Origin: Candidatus Poribacteria bacterium
Lineage (GTDB): Bacteria; Poribacteria; WGA-4E; JAJDTR01
Assembly: GCA_965222225.1 (NCBI GenBank)
Contig: CBDCTK010000002.1
Location: forward strand, 4,800,001-4,864,000
Direction of reading: 5' to 3'
Length of the DNA stretch: 64,000 bases
Shown here: piece by piece, positions 859-17,298 of the stretch
How positions within the stretch are numbered: the first letter of the stretch is position 1
How the letters are laid out: every line of letters starts with the position of its first letter
Program-made: the position numbers and the translations under genes
The notes under the pieces: model-generated
Database searches by the model: none
What the model saw: only the letters and a program-made list of their open reading frames with translations
What the model was told of the DNA's origin: nothing

Positions 859-1998
859 ATGCCGATTGCCCGTTTTTTTGCCACGTCCGCTAAAGGGATT
901 GAATCCATCCTTGCCAAGGAACTCAAGGAATTAGGGGTTGAAAACCTTAAGACAGCCAGCGGTGGAGTGCACTTTGAGGGTTCGATGGAGGCCCTGTATC
1001 GAGCCAATCTTTGGCTCCGCACAGCGAACCGGGTGCTCATGCAGCTTGCCGTCTTTCCATGCCCTACGCCGCAGGTCCTGTACCAAAATGCGCGTCAGAT
1101 TCGTTGGAGCGAGTGGATTTCTGCACAACAAACACTGACTGTCGATTGCAACTGTCGGGATTCGGCAATCACTCACTCCCACTTCGCTGCACAGAAGATC
1201 AAGGATGCAGTTGTCGATCAAATCCGAGACAATACCGGAAGCCGCCCGAATGTAGACACGCGGAATCCGGATGTCCGAGTCAATGCCCACATTGCAAACG
1301 ATTCCTGTGTCCTAAGCCTTGACGCTTCCGGGGATGGCTTGCACATGCGAGGATACCGCCGTCAAGCAACGGAGGCCCCGATTCGGGAGACATTGGCGGC
1401 GGCTATCGTCGAGTTGGCTGACTGGAACTCCGAAGGGTTCTTTATTGATCCGATGTGCGGGTCGGGCACCATCCTGATTGAAGCCGCTCTGAAAGCGCTG
1501 AATTATGCTCCCGGGCTTCTGCGCGTAGGCAATCGATGTTTTGGCTTTCAACGGTGGCGGGACTTCAACGGCGAATGCTGGGAGCAGATAGTCAGCGAAG
1601 CGAGGAATCGGATTCATGACAAGATTCTCGGTCGCCTGCTAGGGTACGACCTTTCACGTACAGCGGTCAACATCGCCAAAATGAATGTAAGCGCAGCCGG
1701 TTTGACAAATCAGATTCGTCTCTCGAGAGGAAATGTTTTAAACCTGAATCCTTCTGGACATACTGGTGTTATCGCCTGCAATCTGCCGTTCGGCGAGCGA
1801 TCTGGCGACGTGGAAGCACTTGCTCCTCTCTATAAAGGAATCGGTGACATTCTCAAGCAAAGATGCACCGGCTATAAGGCGTACCTTTTTACCGGCAACC
1901 TGAAGTTGGTGAAATCCATCGGTCTGCGTCCATCTCGTCGTTTTGCTCTGCACAATGGCCCAATTGAGTGCCGTCTTCTGGAATACGAGTTGTATTAG
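859..1998 (+). CDS. rlmL: THUMP-domain RNA methyltransferase (RlmL-like, 23S rRNA m2G)
   Basis: ANLWLRTANRVL, LHMRGYR, APIRETLAAA, DPMCGSGT, NLPFGER motifs. Confidence 0.85.
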   Translation: MPIARFFATSAKGIESILAKELKELGVENLKTASGGVHFEGSMEALYRANLWLRTANRVLMQLAVFPCPTPQVLYQNARQIRWSEWISAQQTLTVDCNCRDSAITHSHFAAQKIKDAVVDQIRDNTGSRPNVDTRNPDVRVNAHIANDSCVLSLDASGDGLHMRGYRRQATEAPIRETLAAAIVELADWNSEGFFIDPMCGSGTILIEAALKALNYAPGLLRVGNRCFGFQRWRDFNGECWEQIVSEARNRIHDKILGRLLGYDLSRTAVNIAKMNVSAAGLTNQIRLSRGNVLNLNPSGHTGVIACNLPFGERSGDVEALAPLYKGIGDILKQRCTGYKAYLFTGNLKLVKSIGLRPSRRFALHNGPIECRLLEYELY

Positions 1999-2240
1999 TA
2001 AATAATCGGACAAAAGTTAGTCATTGTGCTAGTCAAGGGGAGGGTTTAAAGTAGTTAAGGCGTGATGCGTAAGAAGACAAAAAAGAGGAGACGCCAATCA
2101 ACACGCGTACAGAAATTGTGACGAGGTGCGAGTATCTGCTATCTATCGGGACATCACAACAGAGGCTAGTGACCAAACGTTTCCTAGGTAACTTGTGTGT
2201 TTCACGACGAAGTTCGATCTGAATTTAGAGTTAGCAAAGC

Positions 2241-3437
2241 ATGAGAAATGTCAAGTCGATGGTGTCGCAAAAATCGATGCTCTTCACAGAGTCTGTCATC
2301 AGGGGTATGACACAACTCTGCATTCGTCACGGCGCTATCAACCTATCGCAAGGCACGCCCGGTTTTGAGCCGCCCGACGAGGTCAAGCAAGCGGTGGCGG
2401 CCGCCGTGCGCAACGGCTATAACCAATATAGCGTCACATGGGGAGCGCCGAGCCTTCGACGGGCCATTGCTGCGAAGATGACGACCTTCAACGGCATCCC
2501 GACCGATCCGGAATTAAATGTGACAATCACTTGTGGCGCCACCGAAGGGATGATGTCGACGATGTTGGCAATCATCAATCCCGGCGATGAGGTGATTGTT
2601 TTTGAGCCGTTTTATGAGAATTACGGTCCCGATGTCATCATCTCCGGCGCAAAGCCGGTCTATGTTCCGTTGCGCGATTCTCCAAGAGCGGATGGCTCTG
2701 TTGGATTGGCGTATGACGTGGACGAACTTCGTCGTGCTTTCAGCGGTAACACGAAAGCCATAATCTTAAACACTCCGAATAATCCTCTCGGTAAGGTCTT
2801 CGGGCATGATGAACTTAAGGAAATTGCGGCGCTCTGCTGCGAATTTGACTGCTTGGCTGTCACGGACGAGATTTACGAACATCTTATCTATGACAATCAG
2901 ACGCATATTAGCATCGGCTCTTTCCCGGAAATGCGCGAACGGACAATAACTGTGTCGGGTTTGAGCAAGACCTACTCAATGACAGGGTGGCGACTGGGAT
3001 ATGTTATCGCCCCACAGTATTTGACAGATTCCATTCGCAAATTTCATGACTTTTTGACGGTTGGGGCACCACACCCCTTGCAAGAAGCGGCTACAGTCGC
3101 TCTAGGGTTGGGCGCTGAATACTATCGCACCCTAGTCGAGGAATATGATGCTAGACGGAAAACCTTCTTGCGGTTGCTGATCGATGCAGGCTTCCACTGC
3201 TATCCCCCGGAAGGCGCGTACTACATCATGACGGAAATTGGTGATTTCGGTTTTGAAGACGACACGCGGTTTGCGCATTGGCTTGTCAAAGAGATTGGAG
3301 TTGGAGGGGTGCCCGGATCGAGTTTCTATAGCCGTCCGGAACTTGGTCGAACAAAACTGAGGTTCATGTACAGTAAACCCGAATCGGTTTTGATTGAAGT
3401 TGGAGAAAAGTTGATGAAAATCCGTGAGAAGATTTGA
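2241..3437 (+). CDS. PLP-dependent aminotransferase class I/II
   Basis: INLSQGxP, NTPNNPLG, DEIYE, SKTYSMTGWRLG. Confidence 0.92.
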   Translation: MRNVKSMVSQKSMLFTESVIRGMTQLCIRHGAINLSQGTPGFEPPDEVKQAVAAAVRNGYNQYSVTWGAPSLRRAIAAKMTTFNGIPTDPELNVTITCGATEGMMSTMLAIINPGDEVIVFEPFYENYGPDVIISGAKPVYVPLRDSPRADGSVGLAYDVDELRRAFSGNTKAIILNTPNNPLGKVFGHDELKEIAALCCEFDCLAVTDEIYEHLIYDNQTHISIGSFPEMRERTITVSGLSKTYSMTGWRLGYVIAPQYLTDSIRKFHDFLTVGAPHPLQEAATVALGLGAEYYRTLVEEYDARRKTFLRLLIDAGFHCYPPEGAYYIMTEIGDFGFEDDTRFAHWLVKEIGVGGVPGSSFYSRPELGRTKLRFMYSKPESVLIEVGEKLMKIREKI

Positions 3438-3580
3438 TTTGTGTAAACAATTTCAAGGGAAATCCTGTCTGAAGCATGGCTACGTTGTTGTTATTGTGTC
3501 AGTGTTTTCACTTGAACGTGCGTAAGACATTGTATCAGTTCTAGTCTCAAACTTTACACTGCTAAACCAAAAGGAGATTA

Positions 3581-4204
3581 ATGAGACACCTCAACGTTTG
3601 TTCGCTAACACTCTTTTCACTCCTCTTGCTATTGAGATGGGCTCCCGACTCCAATGCACGGGCTTTTAGGATAGCGAAACTTCCGGGCGCGGGACCTAAT
3701 TTTGGCTGTGCCGCTTGTCATGTCAATCCCGGCGGCGGTGGGGAGCGAAACGCTTTCGGCCTAGATTATGAAGCGATAGCACTCGCTGCCGGCGATGTTT
3801 ACACTGACGAGCTCGGTCAAAAGGATTCAGACGGCGACGGTTTTTCTAACGATGAAGAGTTCAAAGCTAATCCGCCAACTGAGCCGTGGAATCGCGATTC
3901 CCACCCACCGAACGTGGCTGTGGAGCCATTTGGTAAAATGTTTGCAATCTGGGCACGGCTCAAGCTAGAACCAATTGGATCTGGTCGGAATTTTCGCCAC
4001 ACGTCTGCGAACACTGTGCTGGAGTCGCCTACGGTGTTAAAACGGCCGCCTCGCCTAGTGCACCAAGCAGATTCCGTGGTAGTTGAGGACAACCCTTTCG
4101 CAGCCAAGAATGAGCCGCAATCGGATGCCAAGCCCTCTGTAACAAAAAACAAGAAGAATCTCAAAGTTAGACAAAATCTCACGGGCGGGGTACGTAAGGA
4201 ATAG
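3581..4204 (+). CDS. Secreted temptin-like protein with CxxCH, DSDGDG Ca-binding loop and Poribacteria-type C-terminal motif
   Basis: Signal peptide; CAACHVNPGGGGERNAFGLDY; DSDGDGFSNDEE; AVEPFGKMFAIWARLK; RBS aaggag. Confidence 0.7.
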   Translation: MRHLNVCSLTLFSLLLLLRWAPDSNARAFRIAKLPGAGPNFGCAACHVNPGGGGERNAFGLDYEAIALAAGDVYTDELGQKDSDGDGFSNDEEFKANPPTEPWNRDSHPPNVAVEPFGKMFAIWARLKLEPIGSGRNFRHTSANTVLESPTVLKRPPRLVHQADSVVVEDNPFAAKNEPQSDAKPSVTKNKKNLKVRQNLTGGVRKE

Positions 4205-4500
4205 GTTTCGATTGAACATACGCAACTCAATCTTTGAAGTCCTGTAGTTCTCCAACTTATCTCCGAATAACACAATGCGCCATATCCGTTGTCTGGACGA
4301 CTGAACACCGTTCGCAGTTTTCAAGTAAGGCCGCAGGTCAGAAATTTGATTGGCAATCTAAGCGTCACACGGCTAGATGAAACCTAGGTTGGAGCTTGTT
4401 TCTATTGAATCCAAATCCGAGACTAGCCGAATTTTCGCGCCGAACGCGTCGCCGTTCATTGTTACATCTCGAATCCGGGAATCGTAGAATTATTATAGAA

Positions 4501-6741: not shown

Positions 6742-7812
6742 TTAGTCCAAACAAATCTCCCGCGCTACAGCATTAGCCCCCGCCACCGGCAGCACTTTGC
6801 CTATCCCATTGCGTACAACATCGAACAGATCCGTGTTATCCATCAAGCCGCCGATTCGTTGCGCATTGGGTCCCCAACCGTAGACGGGAACGTTCGTAAT
6901 TGTGTGCCCGTCGGTGGACCACGAAACAGTTGGAAAATTACCCACCCCATTGCTCTCCAGAACCTGCAATCCCCCGGTTTCGTGATCGGCAGTGACAATG
7001 ACAAGCGTATCGTTGCGTCCCTCGCTCCAGTCCATAACAACTCTCAAAGTTTTGGAAAACTCAATTGTCTCGCAGACATTGCGCTCAATATCGTTGGAAT
7101 GTCCCGCGTGATCTATCCTGCCGCCTTCAATCATCAGAAAAAGCCCTGCCGGATTTCGAGCCAATATGTCCAAAGCGGTTGCCGTCATTTCCGATAGGTG
7201 AGGGAGATTGCCTAACCCATCATACTCGTAAGGGAGATTTGTGTCGCCAAACTGACCGGAAACCCACGAAAGCTTTTCCGTATCTAGTGTTAACAATCCC
7301 TGTCGATCGCTTACAACGGTGTAGTTTGCAGCTTCTGCTGCATCGGCAGAAACGCCGTTGCCACCACCGCCAAACAACACGTTCGGTCGGGTGTGGTTCA
7401 GGTAGTCGTCCGCAATCTCCGCCAGATTGCTACGTTCAGGGTTATGGGCGCCAAAGGCTGCCGGCGTCGCGTGGGTAATAAACGTCGTGGAAACCAATCC
7501 CGTACTCTTGCCTTGATCTCTGAAATACTCTAGGAGAGTGTACAATGCACGCCCGTCTCCAGGTAACGCGGTGCTAAGAACGCCATTGTTGACCTTGAAT
7601 CCGGTAGCCAAAGCGGTTGCGGCTGCGGCTGAGTCGGTCATGGACGAATCCGCCGAGTGCGTCGTCACTTCACCTTGGTAAGGAAATGCTTCAAATGACA
7701 GGGTGCCTGCCTCGCCATGCGCATACAGTCCGGCGGCTTTCACTTTCTCAAATCCCATCCCGTCGCCGATGCAAAAGATAACATTTTTAGGCAATTTCGG
7801 CTCACCCCTCAT
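6742..7812 (-). CDS. Alkaline phosphatase
   Basis: NVIFCIGDGMG, TDSAAAATALATG, THATPA, EGGRIDHAGH, TADHETG. Confidence 0.92.
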   Translation of the reverse strand: MRGEPKLPKNVIFCIGDGMGFEKVKAAGLYAHGEAGTLSFEAFPYQGEVTTHSADSSMTDSAAAATALATGFKVNNGVLSTALPGDGRALYTLLEYFRDQGKSTGLVSTTFITHATPAAFGAHNPERSNLAEIADDYLNHTRPNVLFGGGGNGVSADAAEAANYTVVSDRQGLLTLDTEKLSWVSGQFGDTNLPYEYDGLGNLPHLSEMTATALDILARNPAGLFLMIEGGRIDHAGHSNDIERNVCETIEFSKTLRVVMDWSEGRNDTLVIVTADHETGGLQVLESNGVGNFPTVSWSTDGHTITNVPVYGWGPNAQRIGGLMDNTDLFDVVRNGIGKVLPVAGANAVAREICLD

Positions 7813-7893
7813 ACGTCTTCCTCTCTAGTCTATAGGTCTCTCTTAGTAATAGTTTAACAGTTGGTAGCACTCTCACTCTTCTCGGCAGGGAAT

Positions 7894-8772
7894 CTAACCG
7901 GACGCATACGGTTCTAATCGGATAAGCCGCGAGGCGCCATCAAAGCCCGCATTGGTAACATATTGAAATCGTCCAGCCCGATAGGCGTCCGCGTGCGAGA
8001 AATGAACGTGCCCGCAAAATATCGCGGCTATGTTATCAGACGCTCCCTCTGTTAAGAACCTGTGGAACTCCAATGTCGTTTCATTTGGGAGTAATTCCGG
8101 TTTGGCTGCCCTCGTTTCTTCCGTCCAACCCTCCGTAGCCGCCATCATGAGCGGTGTTTTCCATCGCTCAAGAACGGGGAACATGAGCGTATGAATAAAG
8201 ATGGGAATGTGAATAAACAACAAGCAGGGAGTCCCGGTTGCCAACTGGTCTTTGAAGAAACGCATTTGCGCGATTGAAATATGGTAGTTGCTGTTATCAA
8301 GGGCAATTAGTTTGACACCACCAATCTCTTTCACCTGGCATTGTGGCTCTCCATCAATTAACCCCGCAAAGCGAGGACAGTATTCGTCTCGGGTCGCATC
8401 GTTCCACTGCAGAAATGGAAAATGCCAGTCATGATTTCCTAACGTATAGAGATATGGCGAGGAAAGCGTCGTTACGCCGTCTGCAATCACATCAATCGCC
8501 GCCCAAGAAGGAAAATTGGTAATGTCGCCGGTCAAGATTGTCGCGTCAACTCCCGATTCATTGCTTCGGGCAAGTGCTTCAACGAAGTGCTTGTGCGCTG
8601 TCGGACGCTTCGACTCCCCCAATTGTATCAATTTTAACGCTTCAGGATCACGTTCATCAGCGAGGTTCAAGTGCGAGTCGGTAACGTGCATTAGCGTTAC
8701 TGACTGACGCAATCCCTCAATCTGAATCACTGTTTCAGTCGGGTGTTCCGGGTGAAGATGAGATATTTTCAT
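7894..8772 (-). CDS. Calcineurin-like metallophosphoesterase
   Basis: DSH, GD, GNHD, HIP, GHVH motifs. Confidence 0.9.
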   Translation of the reverse strand: MKISHLHPEHPTETVIQIEGLRQSVTLMHVTDSHLNLADERDPEALKLIQLGESKRPTAHKHFVEALARSNESGVDATILTGDITNFPSWAAIDVIADGVTTLSSPYLYTLGNHDWHFPFLQWNDATRDEYCPRFAGLIDGEPQCQVKEIGGVKLIALDNSNYHISIAQMRFFKDQLATGTPCLLFIHIPIFIHTLMFPVLERWKTPLMMAATEGWTEETRAAKPELLPNETTLEFHRFLTEGASDNIAAIFCGHVHFSHADAYRAGRFQYVTNAGFDGASRLIRLEPYASG

Positions 8773-8962
8773 GGGCGGCGTACTCCTTAAAATGAACGAT
8801 TGCCTCGCTAATTAGCACTGCTTTGATTCGGTATTAGTTCTCCCGCTAACGATAATTAGAGTAAATGTGTTACAGGACAATGGCATTCTCATATCTTTTT
8901 TGTGTCGGAAGGCTTTGATTTAAGAGCTCATTTCACTTCACATCATCGCCGAGAAATTCGCG

Positions 8963-8991
8963 TTGACTGGACAACGAATGCGGGCTAAAAT
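8963..8991 (+). promoter_or_regulatory. Putative sigma70 promoter for the MFS gene
   Basis: TTGACT-17 nt-TAAAAT. Confidence 0.5.
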
Positions 8992-9124
8992 ACGCTATAT
9001 CACGCCCGGTAACCAAAGCCGTTTATCCAGCGCCGCGCCCGATTGATGTTTACATGATGTTGAAGATGTCATAACAAAACGCATAATATAAAAAGAATAT
9101 TCCTCGGAACGGACCCACCCCAAT

Positions 9125-10375
9125 TTGACGACAAACATGCACAGCGCCACATCCTACCTACACCTACTGAGGAATTCCAGCCGCAACGTGCGTCTTTACT
9201 TTATCACCGCTAGTTTAATCGGTTTTACACTTGAAGGAGGGCATGCCCTCTTATTCAATCTGTATCTACTACGATTAGGTTACGGACCAGAATTCATTGG
9301 TCTAATCAACGGCATTGGCATGTGTGCATTCGCCAGCTGTAGCTTGCCTGCTGGCAGGTTAACCCAGCGCTGGGGATGCCGCCGGATGATGCTCACGGGA
9401 TTAATCTTGATTATTGTAGGGTATGGACTACTGCTTTTGGTCGAATTGGAACCCGGTATGTGGCGGAACAGTTGGTTGATAGCCACCCATGTAGTCATTG
9501 CTGTTGGTGCCGCGGTATATTTTGTCAATACCGCCCCGTTCTTGATGAATGCCACCAGTGAGAAGGAACGCAATCATGTCTTTTCGGTCTATGCCGCAAT
9601 CGGATCGCTAGCTGGTTTTACAGGTAACTTGGCGGGCGGCATACTTCCAACTTTTCTCAGCCTGATTCTAGAGGTCCCGCTATCACATCCCGCGCCCTAC
9701 CGTTGGGCATTGTTGATTGCCACGCTACTGCTGCTACCAGCTATCTTGATTGTGCGCGCCACTACGTCCGACTCTCCCCCGAAACGGTCAGCCGGAAAAC
9801 ATTGCGAGGGTGGTTCATCTCGCTTTTCTCTGATTCTGCTGCTGAGCTTCATACGGATGCTGACAATCACCAGTTTGGCGGTGGTGCACTTTTTCTTCAA
9901 CGTTTATTTGGACGCAGAATTGAATGTTTCAATCGCGCACATAGGCCTAATACTGGCAATTGGTAGACTCCTAGCTGTCCCCGCGGCATTGGTTATACCC
10001 ATACTCACGTCGCGCTGGGGAAATGGAGGAGCTTCGCTATGGTCGTCGTTGGGATCAGCGATTAGCTTAATCCCCTTGGCGCTTATTCCTCAATGGAGCG
10101 CTGCGAGTCTTGGATTTGTGGCGGTTATGGTGTTGGCGTCAATTCGGTATCCGACGTTCATGATTTACACGATGGAAGTGGTTTCACCGGAACAACGCGG
10201 CATTGCGTCCGGAGCCGGGGAGATGGCAGCAGGGGTTAGCTTCGCATTTATGGCGCTGAGTGGCGGCTATCTCATTACGGCGTTGGGCTACCACAGTCTT
10301 TTCCTGACGGGAGCAATTTTCACAGGCATTGGAACATTCATATTCTGGCTCAATTTCAGAAATCGGGGGAAATAA
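9125..10375 (+). CDS. MFS transporter
   Basis: About 12 hydrophobic helices, GRLTQRWGCRR motif-A-like. Confidence 0.9.
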   Translation: MTTNMHSATSYLHLLRNSSRNVRLYFITASLIGFTLEGGHALLFNLYLLRLGYGPEFIGLINGIGMCAFASCSLPAGRLTQRWGCRRMMLTGLILIIVGYGLLLLVELEPGMWRNSWLIATHVVIAVGAAVYFVNTAPFLMNATSEKERNHVFSVYAAIGSLAGFTGNLAGGILPTFLSLILEVPLSHPAPYRWALLIATLLLLPAILIVRATTSDSPPKRSAGKHCEGGSSRFSLILLLSFIRMLTITSLAVVHFFFNVYLDAELNVSIAHIGLILAIGRLLAVPAALVIPILTSRWGNGGASLWSSLGSAISLIPLALIPQWSAASLGFVAVMVLASIRYPTFMIYTMEVVSPEQRGIASGAGEMAAGVSFAFMALSGGYLITALGYHSLFLTGAIFTGIGTFIFWLNFRNRGK

Positions 10376-10446
10376 ACTAGGCGCGATAAATTGTCTAAAA
10401 CCCACCACATAGCCGGTATTCCTTCCAGCAGATTCTACTCTTTTAG

Positions 10447-10803
10447 CTAGCTGAGGTGTAGGACGATTTCGCCGTCTTCAACCGTAACAGGGTAAGTCTT
10501 GGCTTGAAGACGCGAATCATAAAGCGCTTTACCCGTTCTCAGGTCAAACTCCCACTGGTGCCATGGACACTTGAGAACTTCGCCGATTCCTTCATGCTTA
10601 AGTTGATACACGTCGGGCGAAGTTACATGGGGTCGAATCCGCCCTTGGCAAAGGGGACCACCTTTGTGCGGACAGAGGTTCTTAAGCGCGTAAAAACAGC
10701 CTTTGACGTTAAACACGCCAATCCCGCTGTCACTGCCGACTGGTACCAGTTTTCTCTCGCCGGGAGGCAGCTCCTTCACTTTTCCAACCACATGACGCTG
10801 CAT
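10447..10803 (-). CDS. Rieske [2Fe-2S] ferredoxin
   Basis: CPHKGGPL ... CPWHQWEFDLRTG. Confidence 0.93.
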   Translation of the reverse strand: MQRHVVGKVKELPPGERKLVPVGSDSGIGVFNVKGCFYALKNLCPHKGGPLCQGRIRPHVTSPDVYQLKHEGIGEVLKCPWHQWEFDLRTGKALYDSRLQAKTYPVTVEDGEIVLHLS

Positions 10804-10818
10804 CGTAAATCTGCTCCC

Positions 10819-12477
10819 TCAATCTATCAGATCAGATAGTTGCTTCAACTCAAACAGCGGTCCGCGTCGCAAGATATTTGACAATCGTATTGAGGTATCA
10901 CCTCTTTTAGGCTCCATAGTAGTTCCAGTTTCTCTAAAAACAATATACCCTTTTTGAAAATCTAGAGTCTTAATCCGTAACTTAAATCTTTCTGACGAGA
11001 ACTGACTCAGATCTAACATATATACTTCATATTTGCGTCCTTGCTCCCGTATGTCAGACAGGCTTGCACGAACCAAATGAATAAGCCTCCCATCCATTAG
11101 TTCCCTGATTATACGATATTCATCAGGCTGATCATCTCTGTCCCGAAAGTCGATACGGAAAAAAGTGCAACTATTTTCCTTACAAAATGTCCGAATGTAA
11201 TCGAGGCCTTTGATTCTATTTGACATGCCTTCATTTGAAGCACCGTCCTCCTCTAGTTCCGTGATCTTAATCTCTGCTATCTCACCAGCAGACCTTCCGA
11301 CATCTTGGACACCAACAATCCGAGACTTTTCTCTTGTTCGTGCTTGATTTATTGCGTTGGCACTTAAAGTGAGATAGTCGCGTGGCACTGCTCCAGACGC
11401 GAGAACGAGTCGATCAAGTGCTGTAGAGGAAAAAATATTTGACAGAGTTGAAATTCCAACGCGCTTTGCGTAGCTCAAAAAGACTTGCTCAAGGAAAGCT
11501 TTCGCTCGTGAAGGGGTTTCCAATGTTACACCTAAATCAATGTGATCAGCATCATGCCCGGTTTGTAGTCCAAGGGGTGGCTTTGATTGAAACCAGCGTG
11601 TGAGGTGTCTAATTCCTGCAACTTTAAGCCACGCATCAGAATCACGTACCGCACTGTGGACTAAATCCAAGAGCATAGGCTGTTCTGCACTTGGTAAATA
11701 GTGAAGGTCATCAAGGAAGATATAAAATTGGGTCCCATTTGTATCAGCGAATCGACGAATGACTTTTTGCATGTAGGGTATGAGCTTATTTACTTCATTA
11801 GCGGAGATGTTTTGTTTTGCGTGCAGATTCTCGGTATCGTCTCGTAATTTCGAGATTAAGTTTAGGCTTAGAGGTATGTTCTCTCTTTGTGAATAAAAAA
11901 CTTGCATTTGTTCGCACACATTTAGACAAATCCACACAAAAATTCTCTCCACGGATTCCCTACTATGTGTGTGAATGTTAACCCAAGATGTCAGACAGCC
12001 TTCCCGCTCCACACGTTGTTTTGCCTCGACCATGAGTGCTGTTTTCCCCGTACCTCGCCTGCCAAAAATCAGATGATGCCGAGGTGTGATAGCTGTCAAT
12101 ATGTTCTGGGCTGTATCAGGAACATAAGCTAAACTCGGCTGTGCTTCCGATGTTCGCGCTCTAGCAATTAGAAGGCCGGCAAGTTTTGTGGCTTTAAGAT
12201 TCTGCACTCCATCTTTGAGACGAGTCACTACGTTTTTTGCTTCTCGTTCCAACTTACGCACTACTACAAAACCGTTGAATCCTTTTTGGGAAAGTTCAGG
12301 ATCAAGCGAATTGCCAACCATTGCAGCTTTGTCGAAATCATCTTCAGTGACATACACAACGAAGATACTTTCCTCCGGGTAGTCTTTCCTTTCGATTGAC
12401 TGTATTTCAATTCCGGCTTCAGAAAATTGGTTTTGAATAATAGTCTCTGTGTCCATCGGGAGTTGAAATTGTGTCAT
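10819..12477 (-). CDS. P-loop ATPase, ORC/CDC6-like (STAND-related), with small N-terminal alpha/beta domain
   Basis: Walker A GRRGTGKT, Walker B FYIFLDD, GLQTGHDADHIDL, LVLASGAVPRDYL; ATG at 12477 overlaps the HEPN stop (ATGA). Confidence 0.8.
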   Translation of the reverse strand: MTQFQLPMDTETIIQNQFSEAGIEIQSIERKDYPEESIFVVYVTEDDFDKAAMVGNSLDPELSQKGFNGFVVVRKLEREAKNVVTRLKDGVQNLKATKLAGLLIARARTSEAQPSLAYVPDTAQNILTAITPRHHLIFGRRGTGKTALMVEAKQRVEREGCLTSWVNIHTHSRESVERIFVWICLNVCEQMQVFYSQRENIPLSLNLISKLRDDTENLHAKQNISANEVNKLIPYMQKVIRRFADTNGTQFYIFLDDLHYLPSAEQPMLLDLVHSAVRDSDAWLKVAGIRHLTRWFQSKPPLGLQTGHDADHIDLGVTLETPSRAKAFLEQVFLSYAKRVGISTLSNIFSSTALDRLVLASGAVPRDYLTLSANAINQARTREKSRIVGVQDVGRSAGEIAEIKITELEEDGASNEGMSNRIKGLDYIRTFCKENSCTFFRIDFRDRDDQPDEYRIIRELMDGRLIHLVRASLSDIREQGRKYEVYMLDLSQFSSERFKLRIKTLDFQKGYIVFRETGTTMEPKRGDTSIRLSNILRRGPLFELKQLSDLID

Positions 12478-12998
12478 AATATGCACCCATTGCTTCGTAG
12501 GTTAGTACGAGTTGTGAATAGGAATAGGTCTGCATCCTTTTTGAGCTGAAGGGCATCGGGCTTCCACGCCGTGTTCGATTTTGGATATGGTTCATAATCC
12601 GCACGATTCCTAAGATCGCGGGCGTCTTTTAACATATTCTGCCAGTTGTGACCAGAGGGAAAGCCATCTGGTATATACTGTGGAAGCTGGCTGTGCTGTT
12701 CATGATTGTCACCCTGATGATTTACGAACACACACGCTCGCATTGCGTGATACATGGAGTAATAGTATCGACTTATGGCACTTCGATAAAGGGGAGGTTT
12801 AGATTTTAGCAGTTTATTTGCGCTGTGTCGATGTTCATAGGCAAAGTGCCATCGATCTGCAGCAGCCCTGCTTACCAAGTCGGGTATCGCTCGTCCAGAA
12901 TCATTCTGGATGGATACACCTTCTTTCCAACAATTTATCTGTGCATTAGTGGCTCTCGCCAAGCGATTCAGCCGATCATTAGGGAGAACATTTGGCAT
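12474..12998 (-). CDS. HEPN domain protein (UPF0332-like)
   Basis: SRYYYSMYHAMRA, H in EQHSQL, LRNRADY (Rx4Y) motif. Confidence 0.8.
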   Translation of the reverse strand: MPNVLPNDRLNRLARATNAQINCWKEGVSIQNDSGRAIPDLVSRAAADRWHFAYEHRHSANKLLKSKPPLYRSAISRYYYSMYHAMRACVFVNHQGDNHEQHSQLPQYIPDGFPSGHNWQNMLKDARDLRNRADYEPYPKSNTAWKPDALQLKKDADLFLFTTRTNLRSNGCIL

Positions 12999-13138
12999 AG
13001 ATTTACTCCGTCAGTTAAAATCCGCTTCATGCCATTTTCAGAAAGTTTTTTGCCTACAAGCACTGGCATAAGCCGCTAACGATTCAAAATATTTATATCG
13101 CAAATCTCGACATACACGAAATCTTCGCCTATCATAAT

Positions 13139-14260
13139 TTATGTCACACGCTCCACAACTGCATCCGTGATTTGCAATCGATGTGCATAGAGATCTCGTG
13201 CATTTTCAGCAAAAACTCGTTGCTTGAGTTCTGCGGAGATGCCGGGCAAGAGGGTTGCGGGATTGTCCCAATCCCAATGGGGATAATCGCTCGCATAGAC
13301 CAGCACTTCGTCAGCATGCAGCCATTCGAGGAATTTCTTCAGGTCGGCGCGAGTTGGCGGCTGCTCCATCGGTTGAGTGCCGAAACGGATGTGTCCTCGG
13401 ATGTATTCGCTCGGTAGCCTTTTGACCCAAGGCGTGTAATCTCGCACCGACTTCCAATCCGCATCCATATGCCACATCAGCCCCGGCACCCAGAATGTGT
13501 CGTGCTCAACAAAAAGGAATTTCAAGCGCGGGAACTTCTCAAATACTCCCTCACAGATTAAACTGACGACGTGAGCCATCGCAATCTGCGGCCGTGACAT
13601 ACGCATCTCAAGATAATAGGAAGGGTAACCGGCAGCGGTAGGCGCGTTGGACACTCCCGATCCTTCGGCTCCGAAGTGCACGCACACGGGGAGTCCGTGT
13701 TCTTCAGCCGCTTCGTAAATCGGGTGGTAAAACCGGTTGCCGAAAGGCATTCGAGCGCCTGCCGGCATGATTACCTCAAACACGCTGGGATTGTCGCCTA
13801 ACCTATGAATCTCCTCTGCCGCCTGGCGCGGGTCTGTCGGCGCAATCGCAATCGACGCCCTGAACCGTGAGTCCGCCTCAATCCACGTGTTCAATGTCCA
13901 GTCGTTAAACGCACGGCACATTGCAGTCGCATAATCCGAATCGGGATGAACCGCGGCACCATAAACTGTGGCTCCCGTCAACACGGCGATATCGATTCCG
14001 TACGCGTCGAGATGCACCTGTCGAGTTTGTTCGATATTCGCCTGCGGATCTTTACCCTCGGCTTCCCACAACTCCGCACGCCTGCCCTTTTGCGGCAAGT
14101 TAGTATAACCGACCCCGGGCATCATAATGCCAAAGTCTTCGATATACTCCACATAATGCGTTGGAAGGTACGGATATAGGTCTTTGACGCTTGAGACCTC
14201 ATGGTGAACATCACAATCAATAATGTTGATAGCAGTACCGAGGCGTTGCGGGGTTGTCAT
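13139..14260 (-). CDS. Amidohydrolase_2 family protein
   Basis: IIDCDVH, CRAFNDW, EGVFEKFPRLK, ASDYPHWD. Confidence 0.92.
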   Translation of the reverse strand: MTTPQRLGTAINIIDCDVHHEVSSVKDLYPYLPTHYVEYIEDFGIMMPGVGYTNLPQKGRRAELWEAEGKDPQANIEQTRQVHLDAYGIDIAVLTGATVYGAAVHPDSDYATAMCRAFNDWTLNTWIEADSRFRASIAIAPTDPRQAAEEIHRLGDNPSVFEVIMPAGARMPFGNRFYHPIYEAAEEHGLPVCVHFGAEGSGVSNAPTAAGYPSYYLEMRMSRPQIAMAHVVSLICEGVFEKFPRLKFLFVEHDTFWVPGLMWHMDADWKSVRDYTPWVKRLPSEYIRGHIRFGTQPMEQPPTRADLKKFLEWLHADEVLVYASDYPHWDWDNPATLLPGISAELKQRVFAENARDLYAHRLQITDAVVERVT

Positions 14261-14599
14261 CCTAATCTCCTTCCACGTCTGTCGACGTGATTGAAATCCG
14301 GGCTGGGTATGCTATTGTACCATTATGGAAAGTCTTTGATCAAACCAATTCCTTGAAGTCAAGCCACAAGCATGCCCTGTTGAAATGGCAACCGCGAAAG
14401 CAGATACAAGACAGCACCGGATGTTATTCTGTAACTGAGATTTTTGTTGCGACTCCCACTTGCCTGTGTTAGAATGAAAATTTGAAAGACCGAATCCCTC
14501 ACTCTTTCCCGTGTTGAACCAGCGTGTAATGACGATGGATTAACCTTTAGCGTGGTGTGGATGATAGTCTCGAATGTTGAATGCGGCGATGCACTCGTT

Positions 14600-15149
14600 C
14601 GATCGTCGAATCGCTTGCGTATGACATCATGCTATCGAGAGGGGGAAACGGGACGATTTGTTATCCACTGTTCTATTACTCGTACGGAAATATGGACCCG
14701 GTGCTCGAAATGCTTGAGCATCCGAGAACGGTGCTTGGCTTGAGCGATGGTGGCGCCCACTGCGGGGTGATAAGCGATGTTTCGATGCCAACGTACATGT
14801 TATAACTCACTGGATAAGAGACCGTAAGCGCGGTCGGCGTATTTCCCTTGAGCAGGCTGTGAAATGTCAGACTAGCGAGACGACGCAAACTTATGGATTA
14901 CTTGACCGCGGCATCCTGAAGCCGGGTTATAAGGCTGACGTTAACGTTATCGACTTCGACAACTTGAAAATCCACGCGCCTCGAATTGTCTATGACCTAC
15001 CGGCGAACGGACGGCGTTTAGTTCAGAATGCCTCCGGATATTCGGCGACAATCTGCAATGGCGAGGTGATTTTTGAAGATGGCGAAGCCACCGGGGCGAT
15101 GCCCGGCCGTGTGTTACGCGGAACTCAAGCAGCACCTAGCCAGAGCTAA
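14600..15149 (+). pseudogene. C-terminal fragment of N-acyl-D-amino-acid deacylase family gene, frameshifted
   Basis: LGLSDGGAHC, then a frameshift near 14805, then DRGILKPGYKADVNVID...PGRVLRG; N-terminal two thirds absent. Confidence 0.8.
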
Positions 15150-15354: not shown

Positions 15355-17298
15355 ATGAGCACACTAATTATCGCGGTGCTGAGTTTTGTGGGATTTATTG
15401 CCGCATACCACACCTACGGTAAATGGTTAGCTAGAAAAATCTTTGGCTTAAACCCGGACCGGACGGTGCCAAGTCAAGAATTACGCGACGATGTCGACTA
15501 CGTACCTACAAAGAAAGAAGTCATCTTCGGACACCATTTTACGAGCATTGCGGGGACAGGGCCCATCGTTGGACCAGCAATTGCGGTCTTCTGGGGATGG
15601 TTACCGGCTTTGCTCTGGGTAGTCCTCGGATCAATCTTCATTGGAGCCGTGCACGACTTTGGTGCACTGGTGGTGTCCCTACGCAATCGCGGGCAAACCG
15701 TGGGCGACATTGCCGGACGGATGATTACACCGCGCGCCAAACTCCTGTTCCTAATCGTCCTATTCATGGCATTGTCCGTGGTCTTAGCCATTTTCGGTCT
15801 AGTCATCGCCATCATCTTCGCCCTTTACCCGGAATCAGTATTGTCAGTGTGGATAGAAATTCCGCTTGCGGTAGGCATCGGTGTCTGGATTTACCGGCGG
15901 AGTGGAAATATCTTGGTGCCATCCATCATTGCACTCGGAATCATGTATCTCGGCATGGGCGTGGGAGCTTATCTTCTTCCGATAGATCTCTCGGCATGGC
16001 TCGGTATCCCACTATTCGGTCAAATCGGTCAAACATTTGTGAATGTGGTGGTCGTTTGGACACTGATTCTGTTTGTCTACTGTTTTATTGCGTCCGTCCT
16101 TCCTGTCTGGACGTTGCTCCAACCTCGTGACTTCATCAACAGTCATGAATTAATTTTGGCACTCGTGCTGCTAGTCTTGGGCATTGTTGTCGCCGGTTTT
16201 ACGGGTGGTGCAGATCTGTTCGCGTCCGCGCCCGCTGTCGCGCCCGACATCCCGCCCGACGCACCTCCGATCTGGCCCTTTCTTTTCATCACAATCGCCT
16301 GTGGCGCGATAAGCGGTTTTCACTGCATGGTAAGTTCCGGCACTTCTAGCAAGCAGGTTGCATCGGAGAAGGACGCCCAATACGTCGGCTACGGCGCAAT
16401 GTTGCTTGAAGGCGGACTCGCCGTAATCGTGATTATCGCCTGCTGCGCGGGAATCGGAATGGGGTTGTTCCAGAGAAGCGGCACAGGAGCAAATTATAGC
16501 TTTCAACCCGTTCTAAACTCCGAAACCGGTCAACAGTTGAGGCATCGAGAAGCCTGGAGGACGCGCTACGCCACAACGCGGACAGTTATCAACGCGAATG
16601 GTGAGACAACAACTGAAGGCACTTGGAAAAGCCATAAACTTGGACAGAAGGTGGGCGCTTTTATCGACGGATCCGCCAATTTCCTTGCCAGTCTCGGAAT
16701 TCCGCTGAAGATGAGTGTGGCAATCATGGCGGTGCTTGTGGCGAGTTTTGCCGCAACAACTCTGGATACGGCGACTCGGCTGCAACGCTATGTGATTCAG
16801 GAGCTCGCACAAACTGCCAAGATTAAACCGTTGACCAATCGTTACCTCGCAACTGCCCTTGCGCTATTCGTTGGCGGCGTTATCGCACTCATGCCAGGAC
16901 CAAGTGGCCCCGGGAGCGGCGGGCTTATCCTCTGGCCCCTGTTCGGCGCAATTAATCAACTGCTCGCTGGATTGGCTTTCATGGTAATCGTCTTCTATCT
17001 GCTACGGCGAAATAAACCAATCTGGTTTGCCGTGCTCCCGATGATAGCCATGCTGGTTATGCCGGCATGGGCAATACTCTGGCAGATGTTTAACCCGAAT
17101 GGCTGGTGGGCACAGAAGAATTACCTGCTGTTTGGGTTTGGCTTGACAGTTGAAGCGCTGCAAGTGTGGATGATTACGGAAGGACTGCTTATCTGGAAAA
17201 AGGCGCGTGGCAATTACCCGGAACTTCCGCCCCTGGAAGCCGTAAGCGCTGCGGGAGGCAGCCCCGCATACGCCCATCCAGCGCAGGAAGGAGATTAG
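15355..17298 (+). CDS. cstA: Carbon starvation protein A (peptide/pyruvate transporter)
   Basis: GHHFTSIAGTGPIVGP, LLQPRD, IACGAISGFH, TTLDTATRL, LWPLFG. Confidence 0.95.
   Translation: MSTLIIAVLSFVGFIAAYHTYGKWLARKIFGLNPDRTVPSQELRDDVDYVPTKKEVIFGHHFTSIAGTGPIVGPAIAVFWGWLPALLWVVLGSIFIGAVHDFGALVVSLRNRGQTVGDIAGRMITPRAKLLFLIVLFMALSVVLAIFGLVIAIIFALYPESVLSVWIEIPLAVGIGVWIYRRSGNILVPSIIALGIMYLGMGVGAYLLPIDLSAWLGIPLFGQIGQTFVNVVVVWTLILFVYCFIASVLPVWTLLQPRDFINSHELILALVLLVLGIVVAGFTGGADLFASAPAVAPDIPPDAPPIWPFLFITIACGAISGFHCMVSSGTSSKQVASEKDAQYVGYGAMLLEGGLAVIVIIACCAGIGMGLFQRSGTGANYSFQPVLNSETGQQLRHREAWRTRYATTRTVINANGETTTEGTWKSHKLGQKVGAFIDGSANFLASLGIPLKMSVAIMAVLVASFAATTLDTATRLQRYVIQELAQTAKIKPLTNRYLATALALFVGGVIALMPGPSGPGSGGLILWPLFGAINQLLAGLAFMVIVFYLLRRNKPIWFAVLPMIAMLVMPAWAILWQMFNPNGWWAQKNYLLFGFGLTVEALQVWMITEGLLIWKKARGNYPELPPLEAVSAAGGSPAYAHPAQEGD

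Follow-up and report, generated by a model that had tools for sequence, protein, structure and literature searches.

A HEPN gene coupled to an ORC/Cdc6-like ATPase gene within a Poribacteria amidohydrolase-Rieske operon: a candidate horizontally mobile conflict module

The window analysed here, a 64,000-nt stretch of Candidatus Poribacteria contig CBDCTK010000002.1, carries on its minus strand, at positions 10819-12998, a gene for a small HEPN protein followed by a gene for an ORC/Cdc6-like ATPase. These two genes form one fixed, conserved, accessory and horizontally moving unit. Along the minus strand the order is amidohydrolase (13139-14260), HEPN (12474-12998; 174 aa from an ATG start), ATPase (10819-12477) and Rieske [2Fe-2S] ferredoxin (10447-10803). 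The ATPase open reading frame (ORF) is listed as 10819-12486, and the ATG at 12477 gives a protein of 552 aa, which is the length of its relatives. The ATPase ATG (12477-12475) and the HEPN TGA (12476-12474) share an ATGA overlap (12477-12474), and in 11 of 13 related loci the HEPN match stops on the first base of the ATPase match. At the other end, a 15-nt spacer (10804-10818) contains GGGAG (10814-10818), which touches the ATPase stop codon (10819-10821) and lies 10 nt ahead of the Rieske ATG (10803-10801). The GC content of the ATPase (0.427) and HEPN (0.461) genes is below that of the Rieske gene (0.524), the amidohydrolase gene (0.537) and the window (0.497), and the same holds for GC at third codon positions (GC3; 0.367 and 0.417 against 0.538 and 0.583 in the two flanking genes). 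Relative to the host flanks, the composition of the pair is foreign. A preliminary description of this DNA, made from its letters and ORFs, had reported two co-oriented genes with an ATGA overlap, more AT-rich than their neighbours, lying between an amidohydrolase and a Rieske gene, with the ATPase stop abutting the Rieske ribosome-binding site. Since coordinates, composition, junctions and HEPN motifs all agree, that observation is correct in each checked detail.

The HEPN assignment draws on Pfam, a structure model and Foldseek. The protein matches PF05168 over residues 53-145 (30.1 bits; cut-off 22), and all 25 of its relatives match the generic PADLOC HEPN model, HEPN_IX (best E 2.7e-8). 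The motifs SRxYYxMYH and RNxADY, pointed out at the start, are present and made up of residues invariant in the 25 relatives. The invariant set comprises R72, S76, R77, Y78-Y80, M82, Y83 and H84, followed by R87, D97, H102, R127, R130, N131, D134 and Y135. The extra N-terminal region, estimated beforehand at about 45 aa, is real as well: the Pfam match begins only at residue 53, the model places two additional helices (7-15 and 18-34) ahead of the HEPN bundle, and relatives at 45-57% identity span 97-100% of the protein, extension included. Few proteins belong to this clade: at E <= 1e-3 there are 160 among 5.8 billion, and nearly all have about 174 aa. In the model (predicted local distance difference test, pLDDT, 94) the fold is an all-alpha HEPN bundle, whose best Foldseek match, AF_0298 (2hsb; template modelling score 0.74 normalised to the target), has an E-value of 1.7e-3, just outside the tool's 1e-3 line; TT1696 (1ufb also listed), the sacsin HEPN domain and HepT toxins share the top ranks. 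The second motif reads R130-N-R-A-D134-Y135 with no histidine inside it, and H84 and H102 are invariant elsewhere. Such a D-for-H variant with a conserved histidine at another position is listed for the HEPN-T/PF05168 family in Table 1 of PMC3710099. The protein is a putative RNase-type effector or toxin.

The partner had been described as an ORC/CDC6-like ATPase of about 550 aa, and this view is borne out by its length, by an above-threshold match to the ORC-CDC6-like family PF24389 (50.4 bits; cut-off 27), accompanied by one to AAA_16, and by the Orc1/Cdc6 fold found with Foldseek. The structure model (pLDDT 85.8) has four parts: an N-terminal domain, a linker, an AAA+ core and a helical, winged-helix-like tail. 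The core (aa ~131-390; 11308-12087), delimited from Pfam, alignment and Foldseek, includes Walker A, GRRGTGKT (12040-12063; its lysine is K145), and the DD of Walker B (11707-11712); GRRGxGKT and DD are invariant or nearly so across 38 ATPase sequences. VPRD (aa 364-367), invariant in the relatives, is probably sensor 2. The C-terminal region (aa ~391-552 including the stop codon; 10819-11307), bounded by secondary structure and Foldseek, carries the conserved motifs DxRLIHL and EVYMLDLSQ, and the whole-fold Foldseek alignment suggests that it is winged-helix-like. The top 20 Foldseek matches, which have E-values from 9e-8 to 6e-6 and alignments of 429-529 columns, are all ORC, Cdc6 or Orc1 chains, led by 7jgr_A (9.4e-8), 1fnn_A and 2qby. 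On the Orc1/Cdc6 model TIGR02928 the protein scores 15 bits against a cut-off of 181.3; going by its sequence, it is not a replication-initiator orthologue. At E <= 1e-3 the family numbers 649 cluster representatives, of which 160 reach E <= 1e-30.

Both flanks of the pair are host genes. The upstream one, of the Amidohydro_2 family (PF04909, E 3.8e-33), has orthologues of 78-92% identity in 19 related genomes, and the downstream Rieske gene (PF00355, E 3.8e-14) adjoins the amidohydrolase wherever the pair is absent. The pair occupies this site in seven of the 19 orthologous loci; the remaining 12 are empty, the amidohydrolase lying next to the Rieske gene with about 50-320 nt between the protein matches. 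Moreover, paralogous or distant amidohydrolases (46-53% identity) have an adjacent Rieske gene in all 10 loci, one of which is in the same genome as the window. Because the 12 empty sites and these 10 other loci agree, the ancestral state is amidohydrolase-Rieske and the pair is an insertion, as the preliminary description had proposed. The second amidohydrolase of this genome, which lies outside the window (G000:C2:4031095-4032177, L041; about 50-53% identity), has its own adjacent Rieske gene, and paralogous amidohydrolase-Rieske pairs recur in related genomes.

Alignment of filled with empty sites defines the junctions. In genus g9 the empty sites read ...GAAAC(C/A)ACTTTCTG then ATATGATATAATGAAGGAG...ATG(Rieske), and filled sites read ...AACAACTTTCTG, then ~41 nt, HEPN and ATPase...GAGTTGGAACAACTTTCTG, then ATATGATATAATGA...ATG(Rieske). 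Around the 2.2-kb insert lies a direct repeat with the core AACTTTCTG, 8-14 nt long. In the window, its left copy (13038-13047; plus strand TCAGAAAGTT, gene strand AACTTTCTGA) marks the point where homology to the empty sites stops, and its right copy (10832-10841; plus strand TCAGATAGTT, gene strand AACTATCTGA) lies within the last ATPase codons (QLSD); nine of the 10 positions are identical in the two copies. Translated, the right copy gives QLS of the ATPase, part of a tail common to relatives in other phyla (ELxxLS). The last ATPase codons together with the stop codon derive from a former Rieske leader, and the 15-nt spacer that follows is homologous to the Rieske leader of empty sites. 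On the opposite side, the spacer between amidohydrolase and HEPN (12999-13138) is host-type intergenic DNA up to 13038, resembling that of genus g9, and about 40 nt before the HEPN ATG, including a GGAG ribosome-binding site, belong to the insert. The host genome is a member of genus g1, and its spacer upstream of HEPN is nonetheless of the g9 type, resembling neither the empty sites of g1 nor the other two g1 genomes that carry the pair there. Spacer length is about 150-190 nt in the other filled loci and differs in one Poribacteria genome (L004, G050), where ~1.7 kb of extra DNA (about 2750-4480) separates amidohydrolase and HEPN.

Since ORC/Cdc6-clade ATPases are kin to the transposition ATPases TnsC, MuB and IstB (PMC10853773), the cassette might be thought to move by itself, the ATPase helping a minimal 2.2-kb unit to insert at a short core sequence and the HEPN protein serving as a maintenance toxin. 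The direct repeat around the insert, with its right copy within the ATPase 3' end, would suit such a self-mobilising cassette, and so would the occurrence of the pair at a new site within Poribacteria and the exchange of cassettes between genera described below. However, the insert contains neither a transposase nor a recombinase, no terminal inverted repeats stood out in it, and the structural neighbours of the ATPase are Orc1/Cdc6 proteins rather than transposition ATPases. The tree conflict and the g9-type spacer are, moreover, explained more simply by homologous replacement via the flanks. We regard self-mobilisation as highly improbable, the least probable of the explanations weighed here.

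The position of the pair inside an operon also bears on its expression. Each of the three gene junctions is spanned by contigs that were assembled from the metatranscriptomic libraries of two studies; the RNA runs holding the stretch include sponge metagenomes. The amidohydrolase-HEPN junction is crossed by contigs at 12940-14194 (run X15), 12837-13195 (X16) and 12837-13169 (X17), the HEPN-ATPase junction at 12386-12568 (X16), and the ATPase-Rieske junction at 10512-11078 (X15) and 10661-11078 (X16); stretches lacking such cover in X17 and X19 are no evidence of silence. The bridging contigs are compatible with read-through transcription of all four genes. A consensus scan of the minus strand found no sigma-70-like promoter or terminator in the amidohydrolase-HEPN spacer, a result that is uninformative because the counts equal those of shuffled sequence and the sigma-70 consensus may not be that of Poribacteria. 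Thus, the earlier idea that the pair borrows the transcription of the host operon is consistent with the bridging contigs, although they do not show it. Over 12365-12495, which spans the HEPN 3' end and the ATPase start, the summed contig depth reached 109 and 186 in two RNA-library runs, compared with roughly 10-30 elsewhere; the peak is borne by a short contig with G>A at 12416, and it could stem from sequence common to several strains, from an abundant short RNA or from the assembly itself.

Within the phylum, the ATPase family is present in 14 of 176 genomes (a fifteenth match is a 29% relative), among them 3 of 10 genomes of genus g1 and 8 of 20 of genus g9. Two stop codons and a split have turned the ATPase gene of G030 into a pseudogene. 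HEPN lies immediately upstream of, and co-oriented with, the ATPase in 13/13 related loci, 11 of which are from Poribacteria. Nine of these 11 show the order amidohydrolase-HEPN-ATPase-Rieske, one further locus ends at a contig edge, and in another (L009) the pair occupies a different site, between a SUMF1-like gene and a TPR gene. The cassette has been lost repeatedly within the phylum. Exchange between genera is indicated as well, by a tree conflict together with the g9-type spacer in a g1 genome: a tree of the concatenated flanks separates g1 from g9 at 100/100 support, whereas the ATPase tree joins the cassettes of the g9 genomes G040 and G055 to those of g1 (100/99). The cassette of G033, which is at a different site, falls among those of g9 in the ATPase tree. 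The exchange would most probably have taken place by homologous replacement, using the conserved flanks. Sequence divergence of the pair among Poribacteria is about as slow as that of the genes around it (identity 75-92% for the ATPase, 79-91% for the amidohydrolase).

Could the two genes simply have become a domesticated housekeeping pair of Poribacteria, active for example in RNA turnover, or controlling replication or the chromosome through an ORC-like DNA binder, and co-regulated with aromatic or amide catabolic genes? The constant four-gene order in nine of 11 pair-bearing loci, flank-like divergence and RNA-library contigs crossing all junctions are what one would expect of such a pair. 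They have to be set against its pseudogenisation in one case and its absence from most genomes, 162 of 176 in the phylum and 7 of 10 in genus g1. In other phyla the pair sits in unrelated contexts, often with mobile elements, its composition is foreign, and the ATPase scores only 15 bits on TIGR02928, where the cut-off is 181. A housekeeping role is therefore very unlikely.

Beyond Poribacteria, an alignment-based scan of one-genome-per-species contigs retrieved at least 262 ATPase relatives, and the locus counts that follow refer to the best 80. These come from at least eight phyla, including Poribacteria, Verrucomicrobiota, Planctomycetota, Acidobacteriota, Pseudomonadota, Thermotogae and Myxococcota, as well as Actinomycetota (Streptomyces, Nocardia, Mycobacterium, Pseudonocardia). 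Cultured bacteria with the pair include a Streptomyces, Pseudarthrobacter scleromae and Noviherbaspirillum malthae. A profile of the HEPN clade finds a match directly upstream of the ATPase and co-oriented with it in 76 of the 80 loci, or in 77 counting L108, where an insertion sequence (IS) element lies between the two. Homologues of the two genes thus co-occur both among the 13 related loci and across phyla. No fused HEPN-ATPase form scored among proteins of 967-2760 aa, which is weak evidence. At least five of the 80 loci are disrupted, by a Mutator transposase inside HEPN (L058), frameshifts (L095, L096), decay into pseudogenes (L107) or the IS element of L108.

For each of the 71 non-Poribacteria loci, the neighbourhood was taken as at most four called ORFs closest to the pair, 262 in all. 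On this basis, 28 of the 71 have an unambiguous mobile-element or defence marker nearby, the markers being tyrosine or serine recombinases, DDE or rve transposases, TrwC/MobA/Replic_Relax relaxases, pSAM2-type Rep and FtsK, HsdM and N6_N4 methylases, Mrr/HNH/Vsr-type nucleases, Cas3, ImmA and OLD-type AAA_15. Since genes were called only crudely and the count has no control loci beside it, this proportion describes context and is not a measured enrichment. In one Chthoniobacterales locus (L013/L054), a KAP NTPase stands on one side of the pair and an integrase on the other, and next to the integrase come Gabija-like AAA_15 and UvrD genes, surroundings that look like a defence island on an integrated element. 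The preliminary description had proposed that the minimal nucleotidyltransferase (MNT) that usually accompanies HEPN proteins of this type has been replaced. Indeed, in the window the neighbours of HEPN are the ATPase and the amidohydrolase genes, with no adjacent MNT gene, and no nucleotidyltransferase family occurs among the 262 neighbouring ORFs.

Strict linkage in 77 of 80 loci, an effector-first order with an ATGA-coupled partner and long retention at one Poribacteria site would equally be expected of a pure toxin-antitoxin (addiction) module, in which the HEPN toxin is sequestered or remodelled by the ATPase as a proteinaceous antitoxin and the pair, playing no part in phage defence, persists through the cost of losing it. 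In the NetFlax network (PMC10440598), AAA ATPases are a hub antitoxin class, and a HEPN node also pairs with them. Strong addiction is nevertheless hard to square with the commonness of clean losses (12 of 19 sites empty, one pseudogene), and a 552-aa ATPase with a DNA-binding-type tail exceeds the needs of neutralisation. We consider a purely addictive function unlikely, although toxin-antitoxin and defence roles are not mutually exclusive.

How novel is the pair? No system model of PADLOC-DB 2.0.0 or NCBIfam 20.0, the two collections searched, covers both proteins. The best PADLOC matches of the ATPase, mad8 (E 0.0034) and PDC-M28C (E 0.03), involve the P-loop region only and are shared by 10 and 2 of 38 relatives, respectively; its NCBIfam matches (Sll1717, DS41_1) are again to the P-loop and far under the cut-offs. 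A full-text literature search found no paper describing a HEPN gene paired with a PF24389 ATPase gene. Among described kinds, the HINPO system predicted in a 2026 preprint comes closest. According to that preprint, HINPO consists of a HEPN protein, a ParA protein with an N-terminal inactive nucleotidyltransferase domain and an ORC-CDC6/STAND ATPase, the ParA gene lying between the HEPN and ORC/CDC6 genes or being fused to the latter; the ATPase is proposed to act as a DNA sensor of selfish elements and HEPN as a backup suicide effector. The two outer genes are shared in kind with our pair, the proposed sensor/effector logic is the same, and both are computational predictions. The pair differs in that it has neither ParA nor a Pol-beta-type inactive nucleotidyltransferase, and its HEPN and ATPase genes overlap by 4 nt. 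Placing it within HINPO is contradicted by the direct adjacency of the two genes in 76 of 80 loci and by the lack of a ParA signal in the N-terminal domain of the ATPase. The label "undescribed" in the preliminary description therefore survives as far as PADLOC and NCBIfam models go, but it has to be qualified, a related three-gene kind having already been predicted.

Other known systems share parts of the design. Like the HEPN-MNT (type VII) and PF05168/UPF0332 proteins, ours is a small stand-alone HEPN, and solved HEPN and HepT structures are its nearest folds. Its partner, however, is a 552-aa AAA+ ATPase instead of an MNT, the Rx4HxY tyrosine-AMPylation context is missing, and the two-helix N-terminal extension is peculiar to the present clade. 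NTPase control of a HEPN nuclease in an immunity setting is also a feature of HEPN fusions to DUF499/BrxC-like ORC-Cdc6 ATPases in BREX-related systems (PMC12839542; PMC3710099) and of the ABC-ATPase-HEPN anticodon nucleases PrrC and RloC (PMC3710099). Those are single fused polypeptides, often inside multi-gene BREX or restriction-modification loci; here there are two genes, an ATPase of another family (PF24389) and no associated methylase or restriction genes. Finally, Orc1/Cdc6 initiators (PDB 1fnn, 2qby, 2v1u, 7jgr) give the best structural matches to the ATPase (430-460 columns, covering AAA+ base, lid and winged-helix tail) at only 12-16% identity, and the present protein differs from them in its extra N-terminal domain, its patchy bacterial distribution and its pairing with HEPN. 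Since NTPase-coupled HEPN systems have already been predicted in print, the pair is no new category.

The ATPase has an N-terminal small alpha/beta domain (aa 10-75; 12253-12450), defined from the model and the alignment of relatives. Its 66 structured residues are arranged helix-strand-strand-helix-strand, and P34 and E36 are invariant. The preliminary description had suggested that the first ~80 residues could be a degenerate MNT-like domain. The order of elements is unlike that of the Pol-beta nucleotidyltransferase fold, and a profile of 25 N-termini found nothing credible among PDB sequences (best E 0.3). In Pfam, none of the 25 matches a nucleotidyltransferase, and one matches ACT (E 0.0016). 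A protein atlas search with residues 1-105 gave no usable match. By the element order and these PDB-sequence and Pfam searches, a degenerate MNT finds no support. The nearest ATPase family (28-34% identity, ~520 aa) lacks these ~85 residues and has its Walker A at residue 53 instead of 139. This sister family (L125-L204) is spread over many phyla in shifting neighbourhoods, with an adjacent HEPN in none of 80 loci (a weak HEPN match lies 1.6 kb away in L136) and no neighbour family common to more than two of the 80. It is therefore a solo gene and not HINPO, and a link of the pair to HINPO through its nearest ATPase relatives was rejected. The N-terminal domain and HEPN thus covary: HEPN accompanies 77 of 80 domain-bearing ATPases and none of 80 domain-less sister loci. 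This phyletic correlation is all that suggests a HEPN-docking adaptor, for which the domain is a candidate.

Overall, the pair is best explained as a horizontally mobile two-gene conflict module, with an ATPase-gated HEPN effector, inserted in a host operon; we assign this reading a probability of roughly 0.55. That the pair is a conflict module of one sort or another, whether for defence or of the toxin-antitoxin kind, appears quite probable. The specific mechanism of ATPase-gated HEPN defence is a tentative part of the reading, to which we give somewhat less than an even chance. Transcription would probably start at the amidohydrolase promoter and run on into the Rieske gene, and translational coupling at the ATGA overlap would yield HEPN in fixed proportion to the ATPase. 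The ATPase would keep HEPN inactive, probably through the family-specific N-terminal domain, and, with Walker A and B intact and its tail resembling a winged helix, could serve as a sensor or switch. An invader cue such as foreign DNA, a replication structure or a phage protein would then change its nucleotide state or cause it to oligomerise; HEPN, freed or activated, would cut host or invader RNA and bring growth to a stop by abortive infection or dormancy. In its boldest form, which we hold possible but rather doubtful, the proposal would be that of a genuine, unnamed multi-phylum anti-phage system, in which an ORC/Cdc6-like sensor of invader DNA or replication intermediates unleashes a D-for-H HEPN via a new N-terminal adaptor. 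Among Poribacteria, homologous replacement at a fixed operon hotspot would carry its cassette from genus to genus, with host catabolic transcription powering immunity.

Several observations weigh against a mobile conflict module of this kind. Toxicity, RNase activity, binding, invader sensing and phage protection all stand on inference, not experiment, throughout the family. The HEPN protein lacks the canonical Rx4-6H histidine, and RNase activity is not known to have been demonstrated for PF05168-type HEPNs. Three of the 80 loci (L090, L093, L094) have the ATPase without HEPN, and the phyletic link between the N-terminal domain and HEPN may represent a single evolutionary event. About 60% of the non-Poribacteria loci (43 of 71) show no mobile-element or defence marker nearby, and among 72,556 plasmid records there was one distant match (25% identity), with one marginal match in phages. 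Divergence as slow as that of the flanks is unusually sedate for a defence gene. As for expression, the RNA contigs prove neither transcription nor a single transcript, because the libraries can hold DNA.

If functional, the pair would be a compact two-gene newcomer among the NTPase immune switches of the ORC/Cdc6 and STAND types, a class that is growing, and would offer a tractable test of whether PF05168-type HEPNs without the canonical histidine are nucleases. Its merits are the very strict linkage across phyla, a candidate family-specific adaptor domain with no fold match, and an unusually clean natural series of alleles: filled, empty, exchanged and decayed. Sites with and without the insert, resolved to the base pair within an operon, are useful for following the gain, exchange and loss of defence cargo in uncultured sponge symbionts, and the locus is also suited to studying how such cargo uses host transcription. 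One more candidate NTPase-coupled HEPN system is no surprise to specialists, and if the pair were only a toxin-antitoxin module it would be an ordinary entry in a large catalogue.

Some further observations concern individual loci. The three ATPases with no recognisable HEPN upstream (L090, L093, L094) are on Amycolatopsis and Pseudonocardia contigs; they retain the N-terminal domain, and GC3 at these loci is 0.51-0.56, low for such high-GC genomes. In L013, the surroundings at about 940-4240 and 7000-11600 comprise a 1099-aa protein with BNR/YCF48-like repeats plus a KAP P-loop NTPase, a tyrosine integrase and a GntR regulator. In the window itself, short consecutive plus-strand ORFs (14552-14743, 14581-14805 and 14859-15149) occupy 14552-15149, between the amidohydrolase gene and a large membrane-protein gene (15355-17298), and could be pieces of one decayed gene.

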